Shown: piece by piece, positions 2,800 to 62,050 of the stretch
Layout: every line of letters starts with the position of its first letter
How positions within the stretch are numbered: the first letter of the stretch is position 1
Assembly: GCF_003790525.1 (NCBI RefSeq)
Contig: NZ_CP033635.1
Length of the DNA: 64,000 bases
DNA from: Escherichia coli
Lineage (GTDB): Bacteria > Pseudomonadota > Gammaproteobacteria > Enterobacterales > Enterobacteriaceae
Strand: one strand, 5' to 3'
Notes under the pieces: model-generated
Database searches by the model: none
Told to the model about the DNA's origin: nothing
The model's input: only the letters and a program-made list of their open reading frames with translations
Made by a program: the position numbers and the translations under genes

Positions 2800-2876
2800 G
2801 GCTACGTAGCTCAGTTGGTTAGAGCACATCACTCATAATGATGGGGTCACAGGTTCGAATCCCGTCGTAGCCACCA
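2800..2876 (+). tRNA. metT: tRNA-Met (elongator, anticodon CAT)
   Basis: 77-nt sequence GGCTACGTAGCTCAGTTGGTTAGAGCACATCACTCATAATGATGG...GTAGCCACCA with encoded CCA. Confidence 0.97.
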
Positions 2877-2884
2877 TCTTTTTT

Positions 2885-2969
2885 GCGGGAGTGGCGAAAT
2901 TGGTAGACGCACCAGATTTAGGTTCTGGCGCCGCAAGGTGTGCGAGTTCAAGTCTCGCCTCCCGCACCA
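2885..2969 (+). tRNA. leuW: tRNA-Leu (anticodon TAG), long variable arm
   Basis: 85-nt sequence GCGGGAGTGGCGAAATTGGTAGACGCACCAGATTTAGGTTCTGG...CCCGCACCA. Confidence 0.96.
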
Positions 2970-2992
2970 TTCACCAGAAAGCGTTGTACGGA

Positions 2993-3067
2993 TGGGGTAT
3001 CGCCAAGCGGTAAGGCACCGGTTTTTGATACCGGCATTCCCTGGTTCGAATCCAGGTACCCCAGCCA
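2993..3067 (+). tRNA. glnU: tRNA-Gln (anticodon TTG)
   Basis: 75-nt TGGGGTATCGCCAAGCGGTAAGGCACCGGTTTTTGATACCGG...CCCCAGCCA. Confidence 0.96.
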
Positions 3068-3101
3068 TCTTCTTCGAGTAAGCGGTTCACCGCCCGGTTA
3101 T

Positions 3102-3176
3102 TGGGGTATCGCCAAGCGGTAAGGCACCGGTTTTTGATACCGGCATTCCCTGGTTCGAATCCAGGTACCCCAGCCA
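3102..3176 (+). tRNA. glnW: tRNA-Gln (anticodon TTG), second copy
   Basis: same 75-nt sequence as 2993-3067. Confidence 0.96.
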
Positions 3177-3191
3177 TCGAAGAAACAATCT

Positions 3192-3268
3192 GGCTACGTA
3201 GCTCAGTTGGTTAGAGCACATCACTCATAATGATGGGGTCACAGGTTCGAATCCCGTCGTAGCCACCA
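3192..3268 (+). tRNA. metU: tRNA-Met (elongator, anticodon CAT), second copy
   Basis: same 77-nt sequence as 2800-2876. Confidence 0.96.
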
Positions 3269-3316
3269 AATTCTGAATGTGTCGAATATGTTCGGCAAAT
3301 TCAAAAACCAATTTGT

Positions 3317-3391
3317 TGGGGTATCGCCAAGCGGTAAGGCACCGGATTCTGATTCCGGCATTCCGAGGTTCGAATCCTCGTACCCCAGCCA
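3317..3391 (+). tRNA. glnV: tRNA-Gln (anticodon CTG)
   Basis: 75-nt TGGGGTATCGCCAAGCGGTAAGGCACCGGATTCTGATTCCGG...CCCCAGCCA; anticodon is wild-type CTG (not the supE amber-suppressor CTA). Confidence 0.96.
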
Positions 3392-3428
3392 ATTTATTCA
3401 AGACACTTACCTTGTAAGTGCACCCAGT

Positions 3429-3503
3429 TGGGGTATCGCCAAGCGGTAAGGCACCGGATTCTGATTCCGGCATTCCGAGGTTCGAATCCTCGTACCCCAG
3501 CCA
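3429..3503 (+). tRNA. glnX: tRNA-Gln (anticodon CTG), second copy
   Basis: same 75-nt sequence as 3317-3391. Confidence 0.96.
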
Positions 3504-8210: not shown

Positions 8211-9089
8211 ATGAGCGACGACAATTCACACAGTAGTGACACGATAAGCAACAAGAAGGGATTTTTCTCCCTGTTACTCAGCCAACTTTTCCACGGTGAA
8301 CCGAAAAACCGTGACGAACTGCTGGCGCTGATCCGTGATTCCGGGCAGAACGACCTTATCGACGAAGATACGCGCGATATGCTCGAAGGGGTGATGGACA
8401 TCGCAGACCAACGCGTCCGCGACATCATGATCCCCCGCTCCCAGATGATTACCCTGAAACGCAACCAGACGCTGGACGAATGCCTTGATGTCATCATTGA
8501 GTCCGCCCACTCACGTTTCCCGGTGATTAGCGAAGACAAAGATCACATTGAAGGGATTCTGATGGCGAAAGACTTGCTGCCGTTTATGCGCAGCGATGCT
8601 GAAGCCTTCAGCATGGACAAAGTGTTACGTCAGGCGGTTGTCGTTCCTGAAAGTAAGCGCGTAGACCGGATGCTGAAAGAGTTTCGCTCTCAGCGTTACC
8701 ACATGGCGATCGTCATTGACGAATTCGGTGGAGTTTCCGGTCTGGTGACCATTGAAGACATCCTGGAACTGATTGTTGGTGAGATTGAAGACGAGTATGA
8801 CGAAGAAGATGATATCGACTTCCGTCAGCTGAGTCGTCATACCTGGACCGTGCGCGCACTGGCTTCTATTGAAGACTTCAACGAAGCGTTCGGCACCCAC
8901 TTTAGCGATGAAGAGGTTGACACTATCGGTGGTCTGGTGATGCAGGCATTTGGGCATCTTCCGGCGCGTGGCGAAACCATCGACATCGACGGTTACCAGT
9001 TCAAAGTGGCGATGGCCGACAGTCGGCGTATTATTCAGGTTCATGTCAAAATCCCGGATGACTCACCCCAGCCGAAGCTGGATGAATAA
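8211..9089 (+). CDS. corC: CorC/YbeX magnesium-cobalt efflux accessory protein (CBS-pair + CorC_HlyC), 292 aa
   Basis: translation matches recalled CorC; conserved position after ybeY. Confidence 0.93.
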
Positions 9090-9113
9090 AACCGAAACTG
9101 GATAGATAACTAC

Positions 9114-10652
9114 ATGGCTTTTGCCTCATTAATTGAACGCCAGCGCATTCGCCTGCTGCTGGCGTTATTATTCGGTGCCTGCGGAACGCTGGCCTTCTCT
9201 CCTTACGACGTCTGGCCTGCGGCGATTATTTCGCTGATGGGGCTTCAGGCGTTGACCTTTAACCGCCGTCCACTCCAGTCTGCCGCTATTGGCTTTTGCT
9301 GGGGATTTGGCCTCTTTGGCAGCGGTATTAACTGGGTCTATGTCAGCATCGCGACCTTTGGCGGAATGCCTGGCCCGGTTAACATCTTCCTGGTGGTACT
9401 GCTGGCGGCGTATTTGTCGCTGTATACCGGACTGTTTGCTGGCGTGCTGTCGCGTCTGTGGCCGAAAACCACCTGGCTGCGCGTGGCGATTGCCGCCCCT
9501 GCTCTCTGGCAAGTGACCGAGTTTCTGCGCGGTTGGGTACTAACAGGCTTCCCGTGGTTACAGTTCGGCTATAGCCAGATTGATGGCCCGTTAAAAGGGC
9601 TGGCACCGCTAATGGGCGTGGAAGCCATTAACTTCCTGCTTATGATGGTTAGCGGCCTGCTGGCACTGGCGTTAGTCAAACGCAACTGGCGTCCGCTGGT
9701 GGTGGCCGTCGTGCTGTTTGCCCTACCCTTCCCGCTGCGTTACATCCAGTGGTTTACCCCGCAACCGGAGAAAACCATTCAGGTTTCGATGGTTCAGGGC
9801 GATATTCCGCAATCGCTGAAATGGGACGGAGACCAGCTACTTAATACGCTGAAGATTTACTACAACGCAACGGCACCGCTGATGGGCAAATCATCGTTGA
9901 TTATCTGGCCGGAGTCGGCGATAACCGATCTGGAAATTAATCAGCAACCGTTCCTCAAAGCACTGGACGGTGAGTTGCGCGATAAAGGTAGCTCGCTGGT
10001 AACCGGGATTGTCGACGCGCGTCTCAATAAGCAGAACCGCTACGATACCTACAACACCATCATCACACTGGGTAAAGGTGCACCGTACAGCTACGAATCA
10101 GCCGATCGCTATAACAAAAACCATCTGGTGCCGTTTGGCGAGTTTGTCCCGCTCGAGTCGATTCTGCGTCCGTTAGCACCGTTCTTTGATCTGCCGATGT
10201 CGTCGTTCAGCCGTGGGCCATATATCCAGCCGCCGCTGTCGGTAAATGGTATTGAGCTTACTGCGGCTATTTGCTACGAGATCATTCTCGGCGAGCAAGT
10301 GCGCGATAACTTCCGCCCGGATACCGACTATCTGCTGACTATCTCCAACGATGCGTGGTTTGGTAAGTCTATTGGTCCATGGCAGCACTTCCAGATGGCG
10401 CGAATGCGTGCGTTGGAGCTGGCGCGCCCACTGTTGCGCAGCACCAACAACGGCATTACGGCGGTGATTGGCCCGCAGGGTGAGATTCAGGCGATGATCC
10501 CGCAGTTCACCCGCGAGGTGTTAACCACTAATGTGACGCCGACCACCGGACTCACACCGTATGCACGTACCGGCAACTGGCCGCTGTGGGTACTGACGGC
10601 ATTGTTTGGTTTTGCCGCTGTGTTGATGAGTCTGCGTCAACGACGTAAATAA
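9114..10652 (+). CDS. lnt: apolipoprotein N-acyltransferase, 512 aa
   Basis: multi-TM N-terminus plus CN-hydrolase domain; matches recalled Lnt. Confidence 0.95.
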
Positions 10653-11048
10653 TCCCTTCTTATCGTGCCGGAATACATCCCGTATTTCGGCACGCTCGCC
10701 GGATGTGGCATCAGTGCGTTATCCGGATGACAAAATTCCCCTATCCAACTTTGGCACATCTATTGCTTTGTTATACAAGGCAAAGCTTGAACCCGCATCA
10801 GTACAACCCGGTTGCACCACAGCAATCCACCGGTAGCACCAAAAGAGTGCATTTTAAGAATTTTGCTTCGGAATGGTGCGGCGCATCTCGCAAAAACAAA
10901 CAATAAAACATCAATATCTTTACATTTAGCCAAACTAAATGTTACCTAACAAACACAACACTGCACAATAAAGTTGCAGATGATAACAACACAAACACTC
11001 ACAACGGGTATCCATGCGTTCTTAACGCAGAAGATAAAGGAGTTGGAT

Positions 11049-15402: not shown

Positions 15403-17073
15403 ATGGATAATGCAGAACTCGCCATTGGTATCGATCTCGGTACTACCAATAGTTTAATTGCCGTCTGGAAAGACGGTGCCGCGCAATTAATTCCAAATAA
15501 GTTCGGTGAATATTTAACACCATCCATAATTAGCATGGATGAAAATAATCATATTTTAGTCGGAAAACCGGCTGTATCACGGCGTACTTCGCATCCGGAT
15601 AAAACGGCAGCGTTATTTAAACGTGCAATGGGCAGTAATACCAACTGGCGGTTAGGCAGCGACACATTTAACGCGCCAGAACTGTCCTCTTTGGTATTAC
15701 GCTCATTAAAAGAAGATGCCGAAGAATTTCTGCAACGTCCGATTAAAGATGTGGTGATCTCCGTTCCGGCTTATTTCAGCGATGAACAACGCAAGCATAC
15801 CCGTTTAGCAGCGGAGTTAGCCGGGTTAAATGCGGTACGCTTAATTAATGAACCCACAGCAGCTGCGATGGCATATGGCCTGCATACGCAACAAAATACC
15901 CGCTCGCTGGTTTTTGATCTCGGTGGCGGCACGTTTGACGTCACGGTGCTCGAATACGCCACGCCGGTGATTGAAGTTCACGCCTCCGCTGGCGACAACT
16001 TTCTTGGCGGCGAAGATTTTACTCATATGCTGGTGGATGAAGTTTTAAAACGCGCCGCAGTGGCTAAAAACATGCTCAACGAAAGTGAGCTGGCAGCCCT
16101 GTACACCAGCGTGGAAGCGGCAAAATGTAGCAATCAATTACCGCTGCAAATTAGCTGGCAGTATCAGGAAGAAACGCGTGAGTGCGAATTTTACGAGAAC
16201 GAACTGGAAGATTTGTGGTTGCCGCTGCTCAATCGCTTGCGAGTGCCGATTGAACAGGCGTTGCGCGATGCACGTCTGAAGCCAAGTCAAATCGACAGTC
16301 TGGTGCTGGTTGGCGGCGCATCACAAATGCCGCTGGTGCAGCGAATCGCCGTGCGTCTGTTTGGCAAATTACCGTATCAAAGTTACGATCCGAGCACCAT
16401 TGTCGCGCTGGGCGCAGCAATCCAGGCCGCCTGCCGCTTACGCAGTGAAGATATTGAAGAAGTGATCCTCACTGATATTTGCCCCTACTCCTTAGGTGTT
16501 GAAGTTAACCGCCAGGGCGTTTCCGGCATTTTCTCACCGATTATTGAACGAAATACCACTGTGCCGGTGTCGCGAGTAGAAACTTACTCGACCATGCACC
16601 CGGAGCAGGATTCAATAACGATTAATGTTTATCAGGGAGAAAATCACAAAGTTAAGAATAATATACTGGTTGAATCCTTTGATGTTCCGCTGAAGAAAAC
16701 CGGGGCTTATCAGTCTATTGATATTCGCTTTAGTTATGATATTAACGGATTGCTTGAAGTTGACGTGCTTCTGGAAGACGGCAGCGTTAAGTCCAGAGTC
16801 ATTAACCACAGCCCGGTAACGTTAAGTACCCAGCAAATTGAAGAGAGTCGGGCACGGTTATCCGCATTAAAAATTTATCCGCGCGATATGCTCATCAACC
16901 GTACCTTTAAAGCCAAACTGGAAGAGTTATGGGCGCGGGCGCTGGGTGACGAGCGAGAAGAGATTGGCCGGGTAATCACCGATTTTGATGCGGCGCTGCA
17001 ATCAAACGATATGGCCCGCGTCGATGAAGTTCGTCGACGGGCGAGCGATTATTTGGCCATTGAGATCCCTTAA
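15403..17073 (+). CDS. hscC: Hsp70-family chaperone HscC, 556 aa
   Basis: Hsp70 ATPase motifs IGIDLGTTNS and DLGGGTFD. Confidence 0.93.
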   Translation: MDNAELAIGIDLGTTNSLIAVWKDGAAQLIPNKFGEYLTPSIISMDENNHILVGKPAVSRRTSHPDKTAALFKRAMGSNTNWRLGSDTFNAPELSSLVLRSLKEDAEEFLQRPIKDVVISVPAYFSDEQRKHTRLAAELAGLNAVRLINEPTAAAMAYGLHTQQNTRSLVFDLGGGTFDVTVLEYATPVIEVHASAGDNFLGGEDFTHMLVDEVLKRAAVAKNMLNESELAALYTSVEAAKCSNQLPLQISWQYQEETRECEFYENELEDLWLPLLNRLRVPIEQALRDARLKPSQIDSLVLVGGASQMPLVQRIAVRLFGKLPYQSYDPSTIVALGAAIQAACRLRSEDIEEVILTDICPYSLGVEVNRQGVSGIFSPIIERNTTVPVSRVETYSTMHPEQDSITINVYQGENHKVKNNILVESFDVPLKKTGAYQSIDIRFSYDINGLLEVDVLLEDGSVKSRVINHSPVTLSTQQIEESRARLSALKIYPRDMLINRTFKAKLEELWARALGDEREEIGRVITDFDAALQSNDMARVDEVRRRASDYLAIEIP

Positions 17074-17075
17074 AC

Positions 17076-17183
<108 letters not shown>

Positions 17184-18635
17184 CTAACTGAACAACATCG
17201 CGATTTTACCGATCGCGTAACCTATCACCAGCACCGTTAAGCTGATTTTGATAATGCTGGTAATGCTCTGTGGTTTTTCATCCTCATCATTTTTTTCTTC
17301 GTGGTTTTCAGGTGTTGGCTCATCGACATCTTCATCCTCCGGCTCGAGTTTCACTTTCGTCAACAGCATCCGCGTGATAATGGCCTCTAATGGATGAGCA
17401 TCTCCACCTTCCAGCCTTGTATTAAGACGGGCCAGCATCTCTTGTTTCGGGAACGCTTCCAGCACAACCTGTTCCGCTACCCGATACAAATCCAGTAACG
17501 GTGAATCTTGTTCTGTCTCGCTACCGACTCTCGATTTCCACCATGCCCATGCTTTGCGCTTGAAGAATAACGACTCAATAAACGATTGACCTAACGGCGA
17601 TAATTTTCCGCTATGTAAAATTTCCGCCCATAACAGCCGCGTCCGGGCGCTCTCACCAGGAACATATTTCAACGGTTGACCTTGCGCATCTATCATGCTT
17701 CGCGCTTCGATAACCATCACTAATAACGCGAAATAATCCGGGCAATGACGCTTGCTCCACTGCAACAACAAATTATCAGCTTGTGTAGATGGGTAACTCT
17801 CCCGGTATGCGCAGAGATCGGCAAGCAGGCTTTCCCCCTCGCCACAGTACAACCGTTGCGCACACTGGTAATAACGGGCATCTTCGCTTTCTGGATTTTC
17901 TGCTTGCCACTGTTGGGCAACAGGAATAAGTTCCGCCATACCTGTTTTCACCGAGCTGTACCAGCGCAACAGTTTGCGATGTAACTTGACATCATCAGGA
18001 ATGAACCACGGACCTTCCATTGCCATAAACGCAGTGACATAGTCAGGATGGTAACGGCAGCAGCGTTCCAGCGCGAAGTAATACTCAACAGTCTGGTTCT
18101 GCAACGCGACGGGATATTCCAGAAGGCTAAGGAAATCGAAACAATCACCAGCCTGAATGGCCTCAAGAAAAGCCTCCCTTTCTTCCTCATCCATTCCTTC
18201 GCTGTCATTAAACGAATGCCAGTTCAAACGCTCTGCCAGCAAAGAAGCACAATTTAATGAAAGATATCGCGCTTCTATAGCGACTGCACACAGCGGCCAG
18301 CGTAATTGATCGACATCCTCCATGTTCCAGGTATTTAATTGCTGAATAAATTTCTGCCAGGCGGAGGGCTGAAAACGATCACTTTCAGAATCCAGTAATG
18401 CCCTGAATGCACGTAGTATTTCATGTTCAGCGGCGGCATCTTTTTCTTCATCATCTGCTTCCTCGACAGGATTTACCGCCAGTCGCAGCGCCTCTTCATA
18501 GGCCTGGCGTAATGCTTTAAACCCCTGCGGATCGGTTTCGGGATGACACAACGGTAAGCGAGCAAGATAAGCCTGGCGGATAATGTCTATTTGCGTCGTG
18601 CTTTCAATTTCGAGGATTTGCCAACATGTTTTCAT
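17184..18635 (-). CDS. djlC: J-domain-like co-chaperone of HscC, C-terminal membrane anchor, 483 aa
   Basis: N-terminal J-like segment with HPE at the HPD position; hydrophobic C-tail; start overlaps ybeU stop by 4 nt. Confidence 0.9.
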
Positions 18636-41302: not shown

Positions 41303-41337
41303 CCAAAAAAAACCCGCTGATTAAGCGGGTTTTGAAT
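41303..41337. terminator. bidirectional intrinsic terminator between convergent crcB and cspE (AAAAAAACCCGCTGATTAAGCGGGTTTT)
   Basis: stem with A-run and T-run on opposite sides. Confidence 0.75.
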
Positions 41338-41352
41338 TCTTGCTGACGTATC

Positions 41353-41562
41353 TTACAGAGCGATTACGTTTGCAGCAGAAGGGCCTTTGGCACCGTTAGT
41401 GATTTCGAACTCTACGCGCTGACCTTCAGCAAGAGTTTTAAAACCATTAGTCTGGATTGCAGAGAAGTGTACGAACACGTCTTTGCTGCCGTCTTCCGGA
41501 GTAATGAAACCGAATCCTTTGGACTCATTAAACCACTTAACGTTACCTTTAATCTTAGACAT
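41353..41562 (-). CDS. cspE: cold-shock-domain protein CspE, 69 aa
   Basis: [37 protein letters not shown] with RNP motifs; ORF-track upstream extension to 41646 rejected. Confidence 0.95.
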
Positions 41563-41736
41563 CAAAATTACCTTTACATGAAAAATAGACACAAATGCTG
41601 TGTCGGTTACCAGTACACCAATTGTGGTACGCTTTGTCCAGTGCAACTTTACTAAAAAGTGATAAAAGTCGCGTTATTTTTGATGTTAATTATTTTAGTG
41701 GTTGATTTTAAAGAATTTACTAAAACTTCATTTGTC

Positions 41737-42297
41737 TCAAAACTGAAAGCGCATCCAGGCAAAGTACACATTGCCATTGTTGTAGGTACCCGGAATGTAG
41801 GTCATCTGAAACGTCGCGGGGCCATACCCCACAGAGGCCAATGGCAGTAGAACCGGGAGAGGGATGTAATTCCAGTTATCGCGTGCCGTTACGCCAGCGG
41901 TGAATCCCAGGCCTAAATGAAAATTTTCATCTGCCAGCGGTCGCCAGGTACTTTCCCATCCGTATCCGGCAATCGGTTCCCATTTGTTCCACGAGTCCTT
42001 AAATGCCATGGCATACAGGCCATGCCAGTTTCCTTTTTCGTCCCAACGCGACTGACCAAAACCGCCACCCCACGGTCGCTCGTTATAGCGATCGGTTTTT
42101 TCTTTGTCATAGGCAAAACGCGCATGCCAGGTGATGGCAGGAATATATAAATCATAATGTTCTGGCTGTTGCCAGGTTTGTGCAATATTTTCTCTAAACG
42201 TTGTCATCCACTCATCAGCGTTAGCAAAAACTTTACCAACACTGATTAACTGAATAAAAACAAAGAAAAATATAGTGACATATTTACTCACGTTCAT
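41737..42297 (-). CDS. pagP: lipid A palmitoyltransferase PagP (outer-membrane beta-barrel), 186 aa
   Basis: matches recalled PagP incl. signal peptide. Confidence 0.95.
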
Positions 42298-42885
42298 TTG
42301 TGACCATTAAACATTTATCAAAAATCTACTACTAGCATAGCAAAGCTACAATTAACATAACCTTAATAGCCCCAACATAAAAAATAATCTGAATAGCTGC
42401 TCTATTTATTTCCGCTTGTTTAAGTTAAATATTTCCGCACATCGATTAAAGATGATGCGTCGTTTTCTGCGATGGGAATAGTCAAAAAAGAAAAACCAAG
42501 TCTTTTTTGATGACAAAATGCAATCAAGGAAAAATTATTTTATTTTTTAACGAGATACAACAATCATCTTAACGAAGTATATAATATATATCGTCAACCC
42601 ATGCTCATATTAGATTATTTTTTGAGCGCATGGCCGCAGCTAACACCATTGCAATTAACAAATTTGCATCAATCCACCATCAATTTACACACATTATTAT
42701 GTGATATTTGCCAACCGCTAAATATGCGTTTTGTTATCTACGTATAAAAACAGCAACTTCAATGTCTTAATGGCAGTTTTTCTTGATTTTAATCAGCATT
42801 CACCGCCAATTTATTGGGCATATTTTTTCCTTAGTTTTTAGGAATTTTTTATTATTTACTTTGGGGCCTGGAGACAGGAAAAATT
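42298..42885. promoter_or_regulatory. 588-bp AT-rich divergent control region between pagP and dcuC
   Basis: long non-coding AT-rich tract with no credible ORF; contains a tgtttaagttaaat motif (42417-42430) resembling a PhoP half-site pair (weak). Confidence 0.45.
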
Positions 42886-44271
42886 ATGCTGACATTCATT
42901 GAACTCCTTATTGGGGTTGTGGTTATTGTGGGTGTAGCTCGCTACATCATTAAAGGGTATTCCGCCACTGGCGTGTTATTTGTCGGTGGCCTGTTATTGC
43001 TGATTATCAGTGCCATTATGGGGCACAAAGTGTTACCGTCCAGCCAGGCTTCAACAGGCTACAGCGCCACGGATATCGTTGAATACGTTAAAATATTGCT
43101 AATGAGCCGCGGCGGCGACCTCGGCATGATGATTATGATGCTGTGTGGCTTTGCCGCTTACATGACCCATATCGGCGCGAATGATATGGTGGTCAAGCTG
43201 GCGTCAAAACCATTGCAGTATATTAACTCCCCTTACCTGCTGATGATTGCCGCCTATTTTGTCGCCTGTCTGATGTCTCTGGCCGTCTCTTCCGCAACCG
43301 GTCTGGGTGTTTTGCTGATGGCAACCCTGTTTCCGGTGATGGTAAACGTTGGTATCAGCCGTGGTGCAGCTGCTGCTATTTGTGCCTCCCCGGCGGCGAT
43401 TATTCTCGCACCGACTTCAGGGGATGTGGTGCTGGCGGCGCAGGCTTCCGAAATGTCGCTGATTGACTTCGCCTTCAAAACGACGCTGCCTATCTCAATT
43501 GCTGCAATTATCGGCATGGCGATCGCCCACTTCTTCTGGCAACGTTATCTGGATAAAAAAGAGCACATCTCTCATGAAATGTTAGATGTCAGTGAAATCA
43601 CCACTACTGCTCCTGCGTTTTATGCCATTTTGCCGTTCACGCCGATCATCGGAGTGCTGATTTTTGACGGCAAATGGGGTCCGCAATTACACATCATCAC
43701 TATTCTGGTGATTTGTATGCTGATTGCCTCCATTCTGGAGTTCATCCGCAGCTTTAATACCCAGAAAGTTTTCTCTGGTCTGGAAGTGGCTTATCGCGGG
43801 ATGGCCGATGCGTTTGCTAACGTGGTGATGCTGCTGGTTGCCGCTGGGGTATTCGCTCAGGGGCTTAGCACCATCGGCTTTATTCAAAGTCTGATTTCTA
43901 TCGCCACCTCGTTTGGTTCGGCGAGTATCATCCTGATGCTGGTATTAGTGATCCTGACAATGCTGGCGGCAGTCACGACCGGTTCAGGCAATGCGCCGTT
44001 TTATGCGTTTGTTGAGATGATCCCGAAACTGGCGCACTCTTCCGGCATTAACCCGGCGTATTTGACTATCCCAATGCTGCAGGCGTCAAACCTCGGCCGT
44101 ACCCTGTCACCCGTTTCTGGCGTAGTCGTTGCGGTTGCCGGGATGGCGAAAATCTCACCATTTGAAGTCGTAAAACGCACCTCGGTGCCGGTGCTTGTTG
44201 GGCTGGTGATTGTTATCGTTGCTACAGAGCTGATGGTGCCAGGAACGGCAGCCGCGGTCACAGGCAAGTAA
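42886..44271 (+). CDS. dcuC: anaerobic C4-dicarboxylate transporter DcuC, 461 aa
   Basis: polytopic membrane protein; matches recalled DcuC. Confidence 0.93.
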   Translation: MLTFIELLIGVVVIVGVARYIIKGYSATGVLFVGGLLLLIISAIMGHKVLPSSQASTGYSATDIVEYVKILLMSRGGDLGMMIMMLCGFAAYMTHIGANDMVVKLASKPLQYINSPYLLMIAAYFVACLMSLAVSSATGLGVLLMATLFPVMVNVGISRGAAAAICASPAAIILAPTSGDVVLAAQASEMSLIDFAFKTTLPISIAAIIGMAIAHFFWQRYLDKKEHISHEMLDVSEITTTAPAFYAILPFTPIIGVLIFDGKWGPQLHIITILVICMLIASILEFIRSFNTQKVFSGLEVAYRGMADAFANVVMLLVAAGVFAQGLSTIGFIQSLISIATSFGSASIILMLVLVILTMLAAVTTGSGNAPFYAFVEMIPKLAHSSGINPAYLTIPMLQASNLGRTLSPVSGVVVAVAGMAKISPFEVVKRTSVPVLVGLVIVIVATELMVPGTAAAVTGK

Positions 44272-52272: not shown

Positions 52273-53736
52273 ATGTCTTTAGCAAAAGATAATATATGGA
52301 AATTATTGGCGCCCCTGGTGGTGATGGGTGTCATGTTTCTTATCCCTGTACCTGACGGTATGCCGCCGCAGGCGTGGCATTACTTTGCAGTGTTTGTGGC
52401 AATGATTGTCGGCATGATCCTCGAGCCAATTCCGGCAACGGCGATCAGTTTTATTGCGGTTACTATTTGCGTTATTGGCAGTAATTACCTGCTCTTTGAT
52501 GCCAAAGAATTAGCTGACCCAGCGTTTAATGCGCAAAAACAGGCGCTGAAATGGGGGCTGGCAGGTTTCTCCAGCACCACCGTCTGGCTGGTGTTTGGCG
52601 CATTTATTTTTGCGCTGGGCTATGAAGTCACCGGTCTGGGCCGTCGTATCGCCCTTTTCCTGGTGAAATTCATGGGTAAACGCACGCTGACGCTGGGTTA
52701 CGCGATTGTCATTATCGACATTCTGCTGGCACCGTTTACACCGTCCAACACCGCGCGTACCGGGGGTACGGTTTTTCCGGTCATTAAAAACCTGCCGCCG
52801 CTGTTTAAATCATTCCCGAACGATCCGTCCGCGCGTCGTATTGGCGGCTATTTGATGTGGATGATGGTCATTAGTACCAGTCTGAGTTCGTCCATGTTTG
52901 TCACCGGTGCGGCACCAAACGTGCTGGGTCTGGAGTTCGTCAGCAAAATCGCAGGGATCCAGATTAGCTGGCTGCAATGGTTCCTGAGCTTCCTGCCGGT
53001 CGGTATTATTTTGCTGATCGTTGCTCCGTGGCTCTCCTATGTGCTGTACAAGCCGGAAGTGACTCACAGTGCCGAAGTGGCAGCATGGGCCGGTGATGAA
53101 CTGAAAACGATGGGTGCATTGAGCCGTAAAGAGTGGACCCTGATAGGTCTGGTGCTGCTGAGCTTAGGCTTATGGGTATTCGGCGGCGAAATGATCGACG
53201 CCACGGCGGTAGGTCTGCTGGCGGTTTCGCTGATGCTGGCCCTGCACGTTGTACCGTGGAAAGACATTACCCGCTACAACAGCGCCTGGAACACACTGGT
53301 CAACCTGGCAACGCTGGTTGTTATGGCGAACGGTTTGACCCGCTCTGGTTTTATCGACTGGTTCGCTAGCACCATGAGCACGCACCTGGAAGGCTTCTCA
53401 CCGAACGCAACGGTAATTGTACTGGTTCTGGTGTTCTACTTTGCACACTACCTGTTTGCCAGCCTGTCTGCGCACACCGCAACCATGCTGCCGGTTATTC
53501 TGGCCGTCGGTAAAGGTATTCCGGGCGTACCAATGGAACAACTGTGTATCCTGCTGGTGCTGTCTATCGGTATCATGGGCTGTCTGACGCCGTATGCAAC
53601 CGGTCCTGGGGTGATTATTTACGGCTGTGGCTATGTGAAATCAAAAGATTACTGGCGTCTTGGCGCAATCTTCGGGGTGATTTACATCTCTATGCTGCTG
53701 TTGGTTGGCTGGCCGATTCTCGCCATGTGGAACTAA
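52273..53736 (+). CDS. citT: citrate:succinate antiporter (DASS family), 487 aa
   Basis: matches recalled CitT; polytopic membrane protein. Confidence 0.95.
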   Translation: MSLAKDNIWKLLAPLVVMGVMFLIPVPDGMPPQAWHYFAVFVAMIVGMILEPIPATAISFIAVTICVIGSNYLLFDAKELADPAFNAQKQALKWGLAGFSSTTVWLVFGAFIFALGYEVTGLGRRIALFLVKFMGKRTLTLGYAIVIIDILLAPFTPSNTARTGGTVFPVIKNLPPLFKSFPNDPSARRIGGYLMWMMVISTSLSSSMFVTGAAPNVLGLEFVSKIAGIQISWLQWFLSFLPVGIILLIVAPWLSYVLYKPEVTHSAEVAAWAGDELKTMGALSRKEWTLIGLVLLSLGLWVFGGEMIDATAVGLLAVSLMLALHVVPWKDITRYNSAWNTLVNLATLVVMANGLTRSGFIDWFASTMSTHLEGFSPNATVIVLVLVFYFAHYLFASLSAHTATMLPVILAVGKGIPGVPMEQLCILLVLSIGIMGCLTPYATGPGVIIYGCGYVKSKDYWRLGAIFGVIYISMLLLVGWPILAMWN

Positions 53737-58829: not shown

Positions 58830-59576
58830 ATGTTAAAAAAGATACTTTTACTGGCTCTGCTTCCTGCAATCGCCTTCGCAGAGGAACTTCCTGCCCCAGT
58901 AAAAGCGATTGAAAAACAGGGCATTACAATCATCAAAACGTTCGATGCTCCCGGAGGAATGAAAGGTTATCTCGGCAAGTATCAGGATATGGGCGTCACC
59001 ATCTACCTGACTCCAGATGGTAAGCACGCTATCTCCGGTTACATGTACAACGAGAAAGGTGAAAACCTGAGTAACACACTTATCGAAAAAGAAATTTACG
59101 CACCCGCCGGACGCGAAATGTGGCAACGGATGGAACAATCCCACTGGCTCCTCGACGGTAAAAAAGACGCGCCGGTCATTGTCTACGTCTTCGCCGATCC
59201 GTTCTGCCCATATTGTAAACAGTTCTGGCAGCAGGCTCGCCCGTGGGTAGATTCTGGCAAAGTGCAATTAAGAACATTGTTGGTTGGCGTTATCAAGCCA
59301 GAAAGCCCGGCGACAGCAGCGGCAATTCTTGCCTCCAAAGATCCCGCAAAAACCTGGCAAGAATATGAAGCCTCTGGTGGCAAGCTTAAGCTAAACGTGC
59401 CTGCAAACGTAAGTACAGAGCAAATGAAAGTGTTAAGCGATAACGAGAAACTGATGGACGATCTGGGGGCAAATGTCACGCCAGCTATCTATTACATGAG
59501 TAAGGAAAATACACTGCAACAGGCCGTGGGGTTGCCCGATCAGAAAACGCTTAATATCATTATGGGGAATAAATAA
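58830..59576 (+). CDS. dsbG: periplasmic thiol:disulfide oxidoreductase DsbG, 248 aa
   Basis: ATG 58830 with AAGGA 7 nt upstream; signal peptide [17 protein letters not shown]; CPYC active site; in-frame upstream extension to 58770 exists. Confidence 0.92.
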
Positions 59577-59581
59577 AAGAT

Positions 59582-59640
59582 AATTCATGGATGGTTGAAA
59601 TATATTCCTGCTTTTCAACCATCCTAAAAAAGCATGAATT
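59582..59640. repeat. nested inverted repeat downstream of dsbG (aattcatg / ggatggttgaaa ... tttcaaccatcc / catgaatt)
   Basis: 12-bp inner stem and 8-bp outer stem read directly; followed by A-run rather than T-run. Confidence 0.45.
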
Positions 59641-59780
59641 GCTCGTAACCCACCTGACAGCTATGCTATTTTAGAAAATCTTAATCCAAAGTTAAGCAGA
59701 AAAACATAACACATATAAATACAACAACATTATTGATCAAGTGAATGATTTATGGAAGAGACAATACAACGGAGTATGTT

Positions 59781-60683
59781 ATGGCTAATCTTTATGATCT
59801 AAAAAAATTTGACCTCAATTTACTGGTTATATTTGAATGTATTTATCAACATCTCAGCATTAGTAAAGCGGCAGAATCATTATATATAACGCCCTCTGCT
59901 GTTAGTCAGTCGTTACAACGTTTACGTGCGCAATTTAATGACCCGTTATTCATTCGCTCAGGGAAAGGTATCGCGCCGACTACAACAGGGTTAAACCTGC
60001 ATCACCATCTTGAGAAAAATCTCAGAGGCCTTGAACAAACGATCAATATCGTTAATAAGTCTGAACTAAAGAAAAATTTTATTATCTACGGTCCTCAGCT
60101 TATTTCTTGTACTAATAACAACATGCTAATCCGCTGTCTTAGACAAGATACTTCAATCGATATAGAATGCCATGACATACTGCTTTCAGCTGAAAATGCC
60201 GAAGAACTGTTGGTTCAACGCAAAACTGACCTGGCAATTACACTACAACCAGTAATTAGCCGCTCTGTCATCTGCATGCCGTTACATACTATTCGCAATT
60301 CTCTTATATGTAGCAACAGACATCCTCGTATTACCGATACCAGTAACTATGAACAAATTATCGCCGAAGAATTCACCCTGTTGATATCTAAATCAGCAGG
60401 GATTGACGAAATTCAAATGGACATAGATGAACGTTTTATGAACCGTAAAGTTTCATTTCGCAGTTCTTCTTTGATGACTATAATTAATAGTATTTCTGTT
60501 ACTGACTTATTAGGCATTGTGCCCACCGAACTGTACAATTTACATCGTGACTTTTTGAAGTTAAAAGAAATAAAACTGGAACAACCTCTTCCTGCGGTTA
60601 AACTTTATATTTCCTATAACAAGGCTTCGTTGAACAACCTTGTCTTCTCCCGATTCATAGATCGTTTAAATGATAGCTTCTGA
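59781..60683 (+). CDS. ybdO: LysR-family transcriptional regulator, 300 aa
   Basis: N-terminal HTH (LNLLVIFECIYQHLSISKAAESLYITPSAVSQSLQRLR); strongly AT-rich coding sequence. Confidence 0.88.
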   Translation: MANLYDLKKFDLNLLVIFECIYQHLSISKAAESLYITPSAVSQSLQRLRAQFNDPLFIRSGKGIAPTTTGLNLHHHLEKNLRGLEQTINIVNKSELKKNFIIYGPQLISCTNNNMLIRCLRQDTSIDIECHDILLSAENAEELLVQRKTDLAITLQPVISRSVICMPLHTIRNSLICSNRHPRITDTSNYEQIIAEEFTLLISKSAGIDEIQMDIDERFMNRKVSFRSSSLMTIINSISVTDLLGIVPTELYNLHRDFLKLKEIKLEQPLPAVKLYISYNKASLNNLVFSRFIDRLNDSF

Positions 60684-60829
60684 TTCATTACCACTGACAA
60701 ATAATATATTACGCATCAATTAATTCATTATGTGAATATAAAATAATGTGCTCTATCTTGCTTCGTTTATCCTATAATTAGCGGATTCATCTCACGAGTC
60801 ACCCCGTAACGTTCAGAGAGCGTTTTTAG

Positions 60830-62050
60830 ATGTCTATTTATAAAATCCCGCTTCCACTGAATATTCTGGAAGCTGCAAAAGAACGTATTACCTGGACACT
60901 TAATACCCTACCCCGTATCTGTGTTTCTTTTTCGGGTGGTAAAGATTCCGGATTAATGCTGCATCTGACCGCCGAAATTGCCCGACAAATGGGCAAAAAA
61001 ATCTGCGTTTTGTTTATCGACTGGGAAGCGCAGTTCTCATGCACTATTAACTATGTTCAGTCATTACGTGAGTTTTACGCCGATGTCATCGAAGAGTTTT
61101 ACTGGGTTGCGCTCCCGCTTACGACGCAAAATTCCCTTTCTCAATACCAACCCGAATGGCAGTGCTGGGAACCTGATGTCGAATGGGTACGTCAGCCCCC
61201 GCAAGATGCGATAACCGATCCTGACTTTTTCTCCTTTTACCAGCCTGGCATGACCTTCGAACAATTTGTGCGTGAGTTTGCCGAATGGTTTTCGCAAAAA
61301 CGTCCGGCGGCGATGATGATCGGCATCCGTGCGGATGAGTCCTACAACCGTTTTGTCGCCATCGCCAGTTTAAATAAACAACGTTTTGCCGATGATAAGC
61401 CCTGGACTACTGCCGCACCAGGCGGTCATAGCTGGTACATTTACCCCATCTACGACTGGAAAGTCGCTGATATCTGGACCTGGTATGCTAACCATCAACA
61501 GCTCTGTAACCCACTGTATAATATAATGTATCAGGCAGGCGTTCCTCTGCGTCATATGCGAATTTGCGAACCTTTTGGCCCGGAGCAACGGCAAGGATTA
61601 TGGCTCTATCACGTTATCGAACCGGATCGCTGGGCTGCTATGTGCGCACGAGTCAGCGGGGTAAAAAGTGGCGGCATTTACGCCGGACATGATAATCATT
61701 TTTATGGTCATCGGAAAATCCTCAAGCCAGAACATTTAGACTGGCAAGAATATGCATTATTGCTGCTCAATAGCATGCCGGAAAAAACAGCTGAGCATTA
61801 CCGCAATAAAATCGCCATTTATTTGCACTGGTATCAGAAAAAAGGCATCGAAGTTCCACAAACCCAGCAAGGGGACATTGGCGCGAAAGATATCCCCTCC
61901 TGGCGGCGAATATGCAAAGTTTTACTCAATAACGATTACTGGTGCCGGGCATTATCATTTAGTCCTACGAAAGCGAAGAACTATCAGCGTTATAACGAAC
62001 GGATAAAAGGAAAACGTCAGGAATGGGGGATACTATGCAACAACGATTAA
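60830..62050 (+). CDS. ybdN: PAPS-reductase-like / PP-loop ATP-pyrophosphatase family protein, 406 aa
   Basis: PP-loop SFSGGKDS near N-terminus; matches recalled YbdN. Confidence 0.9.
   Translation: MSIYKIPLPLNILEAAKERITWTLNTLPRICVSFSGGKDSGLMLHLTAEIARQMGKKICVLFIDWEAQFSCTINYVQSLREFYADVIEEFYWVALPLTTQNSLSQYQPEWQCWEPDVEWVRQPPQDAITDPDFFSFYQPGMTFEQFVREFAEWFSQKRPAAMMIGIRADESYNRFVAIASLNKQRFADDKPWTTAAPGGHSWYIYPIYDWKVADIWTWYANHQQLCNPLYNIMYQAGVPLRHMRICEPFGPEQRQGLWLYHVIEPDRWAAMCARVSGVKSGGIYAGHDNHFYGHRKILKPEHLDWQEYALLLLNSMPEKTAEHYRNKIAIYLHWYQKKGIEVPQTQQGDIGAKDIPSWRRICKVLLNNDYWCRALSFSPTKAKNYQRYNERIKGKRQEWGILCNND

Follow-up and report, generated by a model that had tools for sequence, protein, structure and literature searches.

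The regulation of pagP (crcA), which encodes a lipid A palmitoyltransferase, has been described both in Salmonella and in Escherichia coli. The promoter of Salmonella pagP contains a footprinted PhoP box, CTGTTTATAGTTTGTTAAG, and was assigned to PhoP 'architecture IV' by Zwir et al. (2012; PMC3335776). This promoter has a second PhoP box, at a distance of about 126 bp from its start site (PMC3335776). The PhoP box of E. coli crcA differs from the consensus at three bases (PMC7667037), and the distance between the box and the start site is 32 bp, compared to 44 bp for Salmonella pagP (PMC2908699). It has further been published that deletion of hns leads to an 18-fold derepression of pagP and that SlyA counteracts the silencing, that the pagP promoter region contains three SlyA-like sites, and that RcsB contributes to the control of the gene. 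In genomic SELEX the spacer between dcuC and pagP was bound both by the RpoD holoenzyme and by H-NS (PMC3946193), and IS5 has been found inserted repeatedly in the same spacer in kanamycin-evolved lines.

The divergently transcribed neighbour, dcuC, encodes an anaerobic C4-dicarboxylate transporter. Myers et al. (2013) placed it in the class of operons activated directly by FNR, with a single FNR motif and the ChIP-seq summit located at 655,298 (U00096.2); an increased occupancy of sigma-70 was also reported (PMC3688515). For dcuC, the same study has the entry 'TSS not in peak region' (PMC3688515), which means that the start site annotated in 2013 lay elsewhere and leaves room for a distal promoter with a long dcuC leader. 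An ArcA site has been predicted upstream of dcuC/crcA (Park et al.; PMC3798270). A genomic SELEX peak for RpoN/NtrC is located at 655,760, beside pagP; a scan with the sigma-54 consensus found no matching -24/-12 element near this peak, and it is treated here as in vitro binding. The control region shared by pagP and dcuC is already known from the literature on PhoP, FNR, H-NS/SlyA, and RcsB.

The pagP-dcuC Intergenic Region

The window analysed here is a stretch of 64 kb from an E. coli genome (NZ_CP033635.1). In this window the ATG of pagP is found at 42297 on the minus strand, and exactly 588 bp separate it from dcuC, which is transcribed divergently (Table 1). The G+C content is 0.30-0.335 across the gap, compared to about 0.47-0.56 in the flanking genes. 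No other stretch of the window without an ORF of at least 60 amino acids on either strand is as large. If the threshold is raised to 100 amino acids, it is exceeded only by the metT-leuW-glnUW-metU-glnVX tRNA operon (2800-3503). The 588 bp are also the largest distance between two features in the RefSeq annotation of a strain that is 99.4% identical, where the second largest gap is 453 bp. In K-12 MG1655 the equivalent 588 bp (NC_000913.3, 655969-656556) carry no annotated features in RefSeq; no small protein is given there, even though the nearby YldA is listed. Five ORFs of 35-48 amino acids can be found in the gap, but when seven E. coli alleles are compared, they shift in start, length, or frame. 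The ORF map, the G+C content, and the annotation gaps thus bear out the initial annotation, which described a 588-bp, AT-rich, divergent region that was the longest non-coding stretch and had no credible ORF.

Of 5426 complete E. coli genomes, 5375 have a gap of about 588 bp. The sequence in the window is identical to that of SMS-3-5 and of 2016C-3878, is 97.4% identical to that of K-12, and is of the phylogroup F type. The K-12 gap shares the length of 588 bp, the FNR box, the PhoP box, and the -10 elements with the window; the differences are a few substitutions, among them the T at 42421 that creates a TGTTTA half-site.

The whole gap is very probably a shared control region in which two short, conserved promoter modules are joined by an unconstrained AT-rich spacer. 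The expectation that it would hold the sites of several regulators agrees with what is known for FNR, PhoP, H-NS, SlyA, and RcsB, and with the predicted ArcA site. A dense packing of such sites was considered as an explanation for the length of the gap, but was rejected, since the middle 240 bp or so are unconstrained and hardly alignable outside Escherichia. The gap is long because AT-rich filler separates two compact and well-studied promoters, and not because a new element is hidden in it, and the result can serve as a calibration.

Table 1. Features of the pagP-dcuC region (positions refer to the 64-kb window).
Feature	Position	Strand	Remarks
pagP (crcA), lipid A palmitoyltransferase CDS	41737..42297	-	ORF and RefSeq annotation
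Whole pagP-dcuC divergent intergenic region	42298..42885		588 bp, about 31% G+C, unannotated in K-12
pagP -10-like hexamer TATGCT	42334..42339	-	12 nt 3' of the candidate PhoP box; aligned to the Salmonella -10 TATTAT
Probable PhoP box TATTAA-GGTTA-TGTTAA, TATTAAGGTTATGTTAA	42352..42368	-	3 mismatches; direct orientation relative to pagP
Central AT-rich spacer	42400..42640		Gapped or poorly aligned in other genera; includes the hypervariable core 42481-42640
Single PhoP-like half-site in tgtttaagttaaat	42418..42431	+	Not conserved
10-bp perfect AT-rich inverted repeat TCAAAAAAGA/TCTTTTTTGA	42482..42510		Allele-specific
Hexamers proposed from RpoD genomic SELEX, ATGACA-17-AATTAT / TTAAGA-17-TAAAAA	42510-42538 / 42581-42553	+ / -	PMC3946193
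Weakly conserved distal block, CAATTAACA followed by two ATCAAT copies 11 bp apart	42652..42684		Conservation profile 0.36-0.46
FNR box TTGAT-TTTA-ATCAG, TTGATTTTAATCAG	42783..42796	+	1 mismatch to consensus (9 of 10 positions)
dcuC -10-like hexamer CATATT (CACATT in other genera)	42819..42824	+	Conserved block TTATTnGGCA(C/T)ATT
dcuC Shine-Dalgarno AGGA	42876..42879	+	6 nt before ATG; block ACAGG(G/A) conserved
dcuC, anaerobic C4-dicarboxylate transporter CDS	42886..44271	+	ORF and RefSeq annotation

Conservation in Other Enterobacteriaceae

Eighty loci encoding relatives of PagP were retrieved, using one genome for each species, and 23 Enterobacteriaceae loci were used for the comparison between genera, giving an alignment of 24 sequences. 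The divergent order of dcuC and pagP is present in Escherichia, Citrobacter, Salmonella, Klebsiella, Raoultella, and many Enterobacter. The length of the gap varies two-fold, from 275-293 bp in Klebsiella and Raoultella, via 391 bp in Salmonella, 412-465 bp in Citrobacter, and about 438 bp in typical Enterobacter and Lelliottia loci, to 558-588 bp in Escherichia. Only two parts of the gap are conserved in the alignment. One is the approximately 100 bp closest to pagP (42298-42397), the other the approximately 110 bp closest to dcuC (42778-42885). From 42398 to about 42640 the conservation score is mostly 0.1-0.3, and the alignment is largely gapped outside Escherichia.

The dcuC Promoter

The best conserved segment of the entire gap is the one containing the FNR box, with a score of 0.87; its TTGAT and TCAG hardly vary among the 24 sequences of the alignment. 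An FNR motif scan had been proposed initially, and a consensus search identifies this conserved box with its single mismatch beside the ChIP-seq summit. Using an offset between the two K-12 sequence versions that we take to be correct, the published summit is placed at about 42779 in the window. The FNR box coincides with the summit, its centre being about 10 bp away.

We infer that dcuC transcription starts near 42831. This would place the FNR box (centre 42789.5) at -41.5, as in class II geometry, and give a leader of about 55 nt. A module of about 110 bp organized in this way would fit the anaerobic induction of dcuC. The locus resembles class II FNR-activated promoters in having a TTGAT-N4-ATCAx box, a -10-like hexamer at the right distance, and a gene that is activated by FNR. 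It differs from them in that the start site is a predicted one and that the -10 hexamer (CATATT) is weak. A 14-nt inverted repeat (42818-42831 and 42876-42889) is also present here.

Further upstream of dcuC the distal block displays weak conservation, and its ATTAACA sequence is kept in most genera. It is a candidate for a distal regulator site and might, speculatively, correspond to the ArcA site of Park et al. An ArcA motif scan had also been suggested. The search with the consensus GTTAATTAAATGTTA found nothing specific in the gap when up to three mismatches were allowed, which is weak evidence given that a consensus string was used and not a matrix.

The pagP Promoter

PhoP boxes were searched for as the direct repeat (T/G)GTTTA-N5-(T/G)GTTTA, where known functional boxes have up to three mismatches. 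Matches at this threshold are common, as 193 are found in the 64 kb, and other PhoP-like matches with two or three mismatches exist near pagP, such as 42308-42324 with two. The sequence at 42352-42368 is a direct repeat within this limit, with three mismatches as published for crcA, and lies 12 nt upstream of the TATGCT hexamer. Based on published secondary statements and on homology to the Salmonella box, it is probably the PhoP box of pagP. A block that reads CTTAAC is invariant across the genera; on the pagP strand it is TGTTAAG, and in E. coli TATTAAG. In the footprinted box of Salmonella this block constitutes the 3' half; in the E. coli candidate it would be the upstream (5') half. The E. 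coli box thus seems to be shifted by one half-site relative to that of Salmonella, which would account for the start-site distances of 32 and 44 bp.

The start site of pagP is predicted to be near 42327, about 7 nt downstream of TATGCT, which would give a leader of about 30 nt and place the centre of the candidate box about 33 nt from the start. In the proposed pagP module of about 100 bp, the PhoP box would overlap the -35 position, an arrangement that fits induction by low Mg2+. The Salmonella enterica promoter is similar in having a homologous -10 element, the TGTTAAG/TATTAAG block, activation by PhoP, and a short leader. It differs in its second upstream box and in the position of the footprinted one, which is displaced upstream by one half-site (11-12 bp) and lies at 43-44 nt from the start. 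The Salmonella gap of about 391 bp also lacks the central spacer of Escherichia.

The initial annotation placed a PhoP-like pair of half-sites, tgtttaagttaaat, about 120 bp upstream of pagP. The position is right, as the motif is found 121 bp from the ATG, but the likeness to a PhoP pair does not hold. Read as TGTTTA-AGTTA-AATATT, the motif has four mismatches, all of them in the second half (AATATT), and thus exceeds the limit of three used in the search. It is also on the opposite strand to pagP, and in K-12, where the PhoP control was defined, the half-site reads TGTCTA. The T at 42421 is a C in five of the seven E. coli sequences compared (K-12, O157:H7, B2, L008, and L009). The segment has a conservation score of 0.18 between genera, and it is gapped in most of them. 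In DNA with 31% G+C a single consensus half-site is no more than what is expected by chance, and judged by its sequence the motif is such a chance half-site in AT-rich DNA. The PhoP site is consequently better sought closer to the gene, where the candidate box and the -10 hexamer are found 37-71 bp from the pagP ATG and not at about 120 bp.

The AT-Rich Spacer

The spacer between the two modules (about 240-370 bp, 30% G+C) may hold filaments of H-NS by which pagP is silenced; SlyA would then relieve the silencing, and RcsB would contribute to the control. The most likely role of the spacer is thus structural, as H-NS-binding DNA, with H-NS presumably extending over much of it. The low G+C content was computed here, while the occupancy by H-NS and the 18-fold derepression are taken from the literature. 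Together these are the properties of an H-NS-silenced AT-rich region. The likeness to H-NS-silenced promoters that are relieved by SlyA or IS5 consists of the 30% G+C, the presence of H-NS on the spacer, the 18-fold derepression, the counteraction by SlyA, and the recurrent IS5 insertions. The bgl promoter is an example of an H-NS-silenced promoter that is relieved by insertion of IS5. A scan with the SlyA consensus TTAGCAAGCTAA found nothing specific in the gap, and scans for the high-affinity H-NS motif and the sigma-54 consensus found no specific or enriched site there; all three used consensus strings in place of matrices, and their negative outcome is weak evidence.

Among seven E. coli sequences the mean pairwise divergence of the gap is 6.0%, compared to 1.3-2.4% in the flanking genes. 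The core of the spacer (42481-42640) has a mean divergence of 12.9% and a maximum of 18.2% in the same set. At 686 four-fold degenerate sites, taken from six neighbouring genes, the corresponding values are 5.5% and 7.9%, and the core evolves faster than these synonymous sites. When compared to two other Escherichia lineages, the centre has 46-62% mismatches and is nearly unalignable. The identity of the core to that of the window is bimodal over 5376 genomes: it is at least 95% in 3264, 90-95% in 68, and 80-90% in 2042. The distribution of these allele classes contradicts that of the flanking genes. The window and K-12 differ at 1.9% of the positions in the core and at 7.4% of the four-fold sites, while K-12 and O157 differ at 17.6% and 2.2%, respectively. 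The core is not unique in this respect, as 9-14 patches with at least 10% divergence are found in the 64-kb window when it is compared to K-12, O157, and a B2 genome; the presence of comparable patches elsewhere gives less weight to the core as an outlier.

The discrete classes of 160-bp core alleles, discordant with their flanks, resemble the 'switched' intergenic regions of the Piggy concept (PMC5890482). They differ from these in that the core alleles are 81-88% identical and alignable, which is not a wholesale replacement. The pagP-dcuC locus was not found in the literature on switched intergenic regions. One may ask if pagP is silenced by H-NS to different degrees in the allele classes, or if these differ in the activity of cryptic promoters, giving heritable differences in pagP expression among lineages that are maintained by selection and moved by recombination. 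We consider this a tentative idea with a rather small chance of being correct. If it is true, the core alleles would cause lineages to differ in basal or inducible pagP expression, in palmitoylation of lipid A, and in resistance to antimicrobial peptides. An effect on silencing would represent natural regulatory variation in a gene for outer-membrane remodelling, with consequences for survival in biofilms as well as for peptide resistance. This dimorphism of the spacer alleles is the one part of the locus with some value for later work, and its interest is modest.

Alternative Interpretations of the Spacer

It has been suggested that the region might host an unannotated sRNA or a leader. In Shigella flexneri 301 a 295-nt sRNA, Ssr31, was predicted on the pagP strand of this gap from a promoter plus a terminator, and was positive in RT-PCR (PMC4782007). 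RT-PCR can, however, not tell a discrete sRNA from read-through or from pervasive transcription of H-NS-bound AT-rich DNA. The 10-bp inverted repeat at 42482-42510 forms the only clear hairpin in the gap and could pass for a terminator, but it exists only in the allele shared by the window, K-12, and L008. In four of the seven alleles (O157, B2, ST69, and L009) it is broken without compensating changes, and it is probably without function. The centre in which it lies is hypervariable in E. coli and aligns poorly with other genera. A terminator scan found no terminator-like site inside 42298-42885. An Rfam search of the gap at permissive thresholds gave nothing above noise, the best E-values being 3.4 or worse, for eukaryotic snoRNA and miRNA models and for unrelated bacterial sRNA models. 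The only real Rfam match in the search was that of a cspA-type model to cspE. Compared to shuffled sequences, the whole gap folds slightly better on the + strand (z = -2.5) but not on the minus strand (z = -1.1). The fold was rejected as evidence for an RNA, as the structure consists of long-range AT pairing and the non-conserved hairpin. In the parts of the 3'-end map supplements considered here, neither pagP nor dcuC appears, and the corresponding part of a RIL-seq-derived list has no intergenic node for the gap, dcuC being represented there only by its coding sequence. It is thus very improbable that the spacer encodes an independent small RNA like Ssr31. Distal promoters in the spacer are also improbable, although less so; dcuC would then have a leader of about 340 nt, starting from ATGACA-17-AATTAT, and pagP one of about 250 nt, starting from TTAAGA-17-TAAAAA. 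RpoD holoenzyme binds the spacer in vitro, hexamers were proposed there, and the + strand pair was recovered by our consensus scan as the only sigma-70-like match in the gap. The dcuC start known in 2013 lay outside the FNR peak, and in a read-through transcript the 14-nt inverted repeat could mask the ribosome-binding site of dcuC. Against this, the gap contains fewer promoter-like sites than shuffled sequences (1 versus a mean of 3.9), both hexamer pairs are in the hypervariable core, ATGACA is not kept intact in the alleles L005, L006, and L009, and the sequence of the long leaders is neither conserved nor matched by any riboswitch or leader family. H-NS-bound AT-rich DNA commonly contains spurious promoters, and the two pairs are likely to be spurious or minor. 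With a structural spacer and two proximal start sites, the 5' UTRs would instead be about 30 and 55 nt.

Two further interpretations concern parts of the spacer DNA, and both are very improbable. The half-site at 42418-42423 could belong to a functional secondary PhoP site, as in the two-box promoter of Salmonella pagP. TGTTTA is a perfect half-site, and it is also the 3' half of a pair with three mismatches, TTATTTCCGCTTGTTTA (42406-42422). Such matches are frequent in the window, though, and the half-site is in reverse orientation and has no partner of any quality within the motif that was first noted. Since the half-site reads TGTCTA in K-12, O157, B2, and others, and no alignment of the segment with other genera is obtained, a secondary site here is hardly to be expected. 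Equally doubtful is the idea that a gene or mobile element was once inserted and has decayed to leave the centre as its remnant. The gap of Escherichia is about 120-300 bp longer than that of the other genera, and the extra DNA is central. However, the centre is not similar to any of the phage records, is present in one copy per genome, and displays neither notable terminal repeats nor a conserved ORF. In a plasmid collection it is matched only by copies of the pagP-dcuC locus itself, carried by eight E. coli records. These eight records range from 113 kb to 4.9 Mb, several being chromosome-sized, and all are non-mobilizable.

Allelic divergence in the pagP-dcuC spacer and elsewhere

In E. coli the hypervariable core in the middle of the pagP-dcuC spacer (42481-42640) falls into separate allele classes when genomes are compared by their identity to the sequence of the window. 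The identity is at least 95% in 3264 genomes and 80-90% in 2042, while only 68 lie in between. The distribution of these classes contradicts the flanking genes: K-12 and O157, for instance, differ by 17.6% in the core versus 2.2% at the four-fold degenerate sites of six neighbouring genes. Further patches display 10-46% mismatches to K-12, O157 or a B2 strain, some of them apparently within genes. Mosaic segments of very high divergence are, as these patches demonstrate, frequent across these 64 kb.

Features of the window and of the SMS-3-5 locus
Feature	Position	Strand	Remarks
Divergent patches besides the spacer core	15911-16250, 16950-17340, 52880-53450, 59530-61100		Window against K-12, O157 or B2 strain
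Inverted repeat, 14 nt	42818-42831 and 42876-42889		93% complementary
IS5-like element in pagP, SMS-3-5 locus	L001 1797-2952
gltI-lnt interval	~8700-10600		Placed by mapping to NZ_CP029747.1
Sigma-54 -24/-12 consensus TGGCACATCTATTGCT	10752-10767	+	Perfect, 0 mismatches; consensus scan
Rfam cspA thermoregulator match	41305-41753	-	cspE 5' UTR and coding region

Insertion elements and neighbouring genes

The intergenic region of E. coli SMS-3-5 is identical to the dcuC/pagP spacer of the window, and the 5' end of its pagP is interrupted by a frameshifted IS5-like element of the ISKpn26 family. Recurrent IS5 insertions in this spacer have been described in kanamycin-evolved laboratory lines (PMC6307192). 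In the gltI-lnt interval, a gene encoding a rhomboid-family serine protease is present in the strain type of the window and in the B2 strain; K-12 has IS5D in its place, and O157 contains neither. Mapping to an annotated, near-identical genome places gltI about 280 bp downstream of the sigma-54 consensus.

Potential RNA structures

The inverted repeat pairs the -10 region of dcuC with its Shine-Dalgarno sequence and AUG, a pairing that would be relevant only for transcripts begun upstream of the FNR-dependent dcuC promoter. On cspE, the Rfam cspA thermoregulator model scores 136 bits, exceeding the gathering score of 78.
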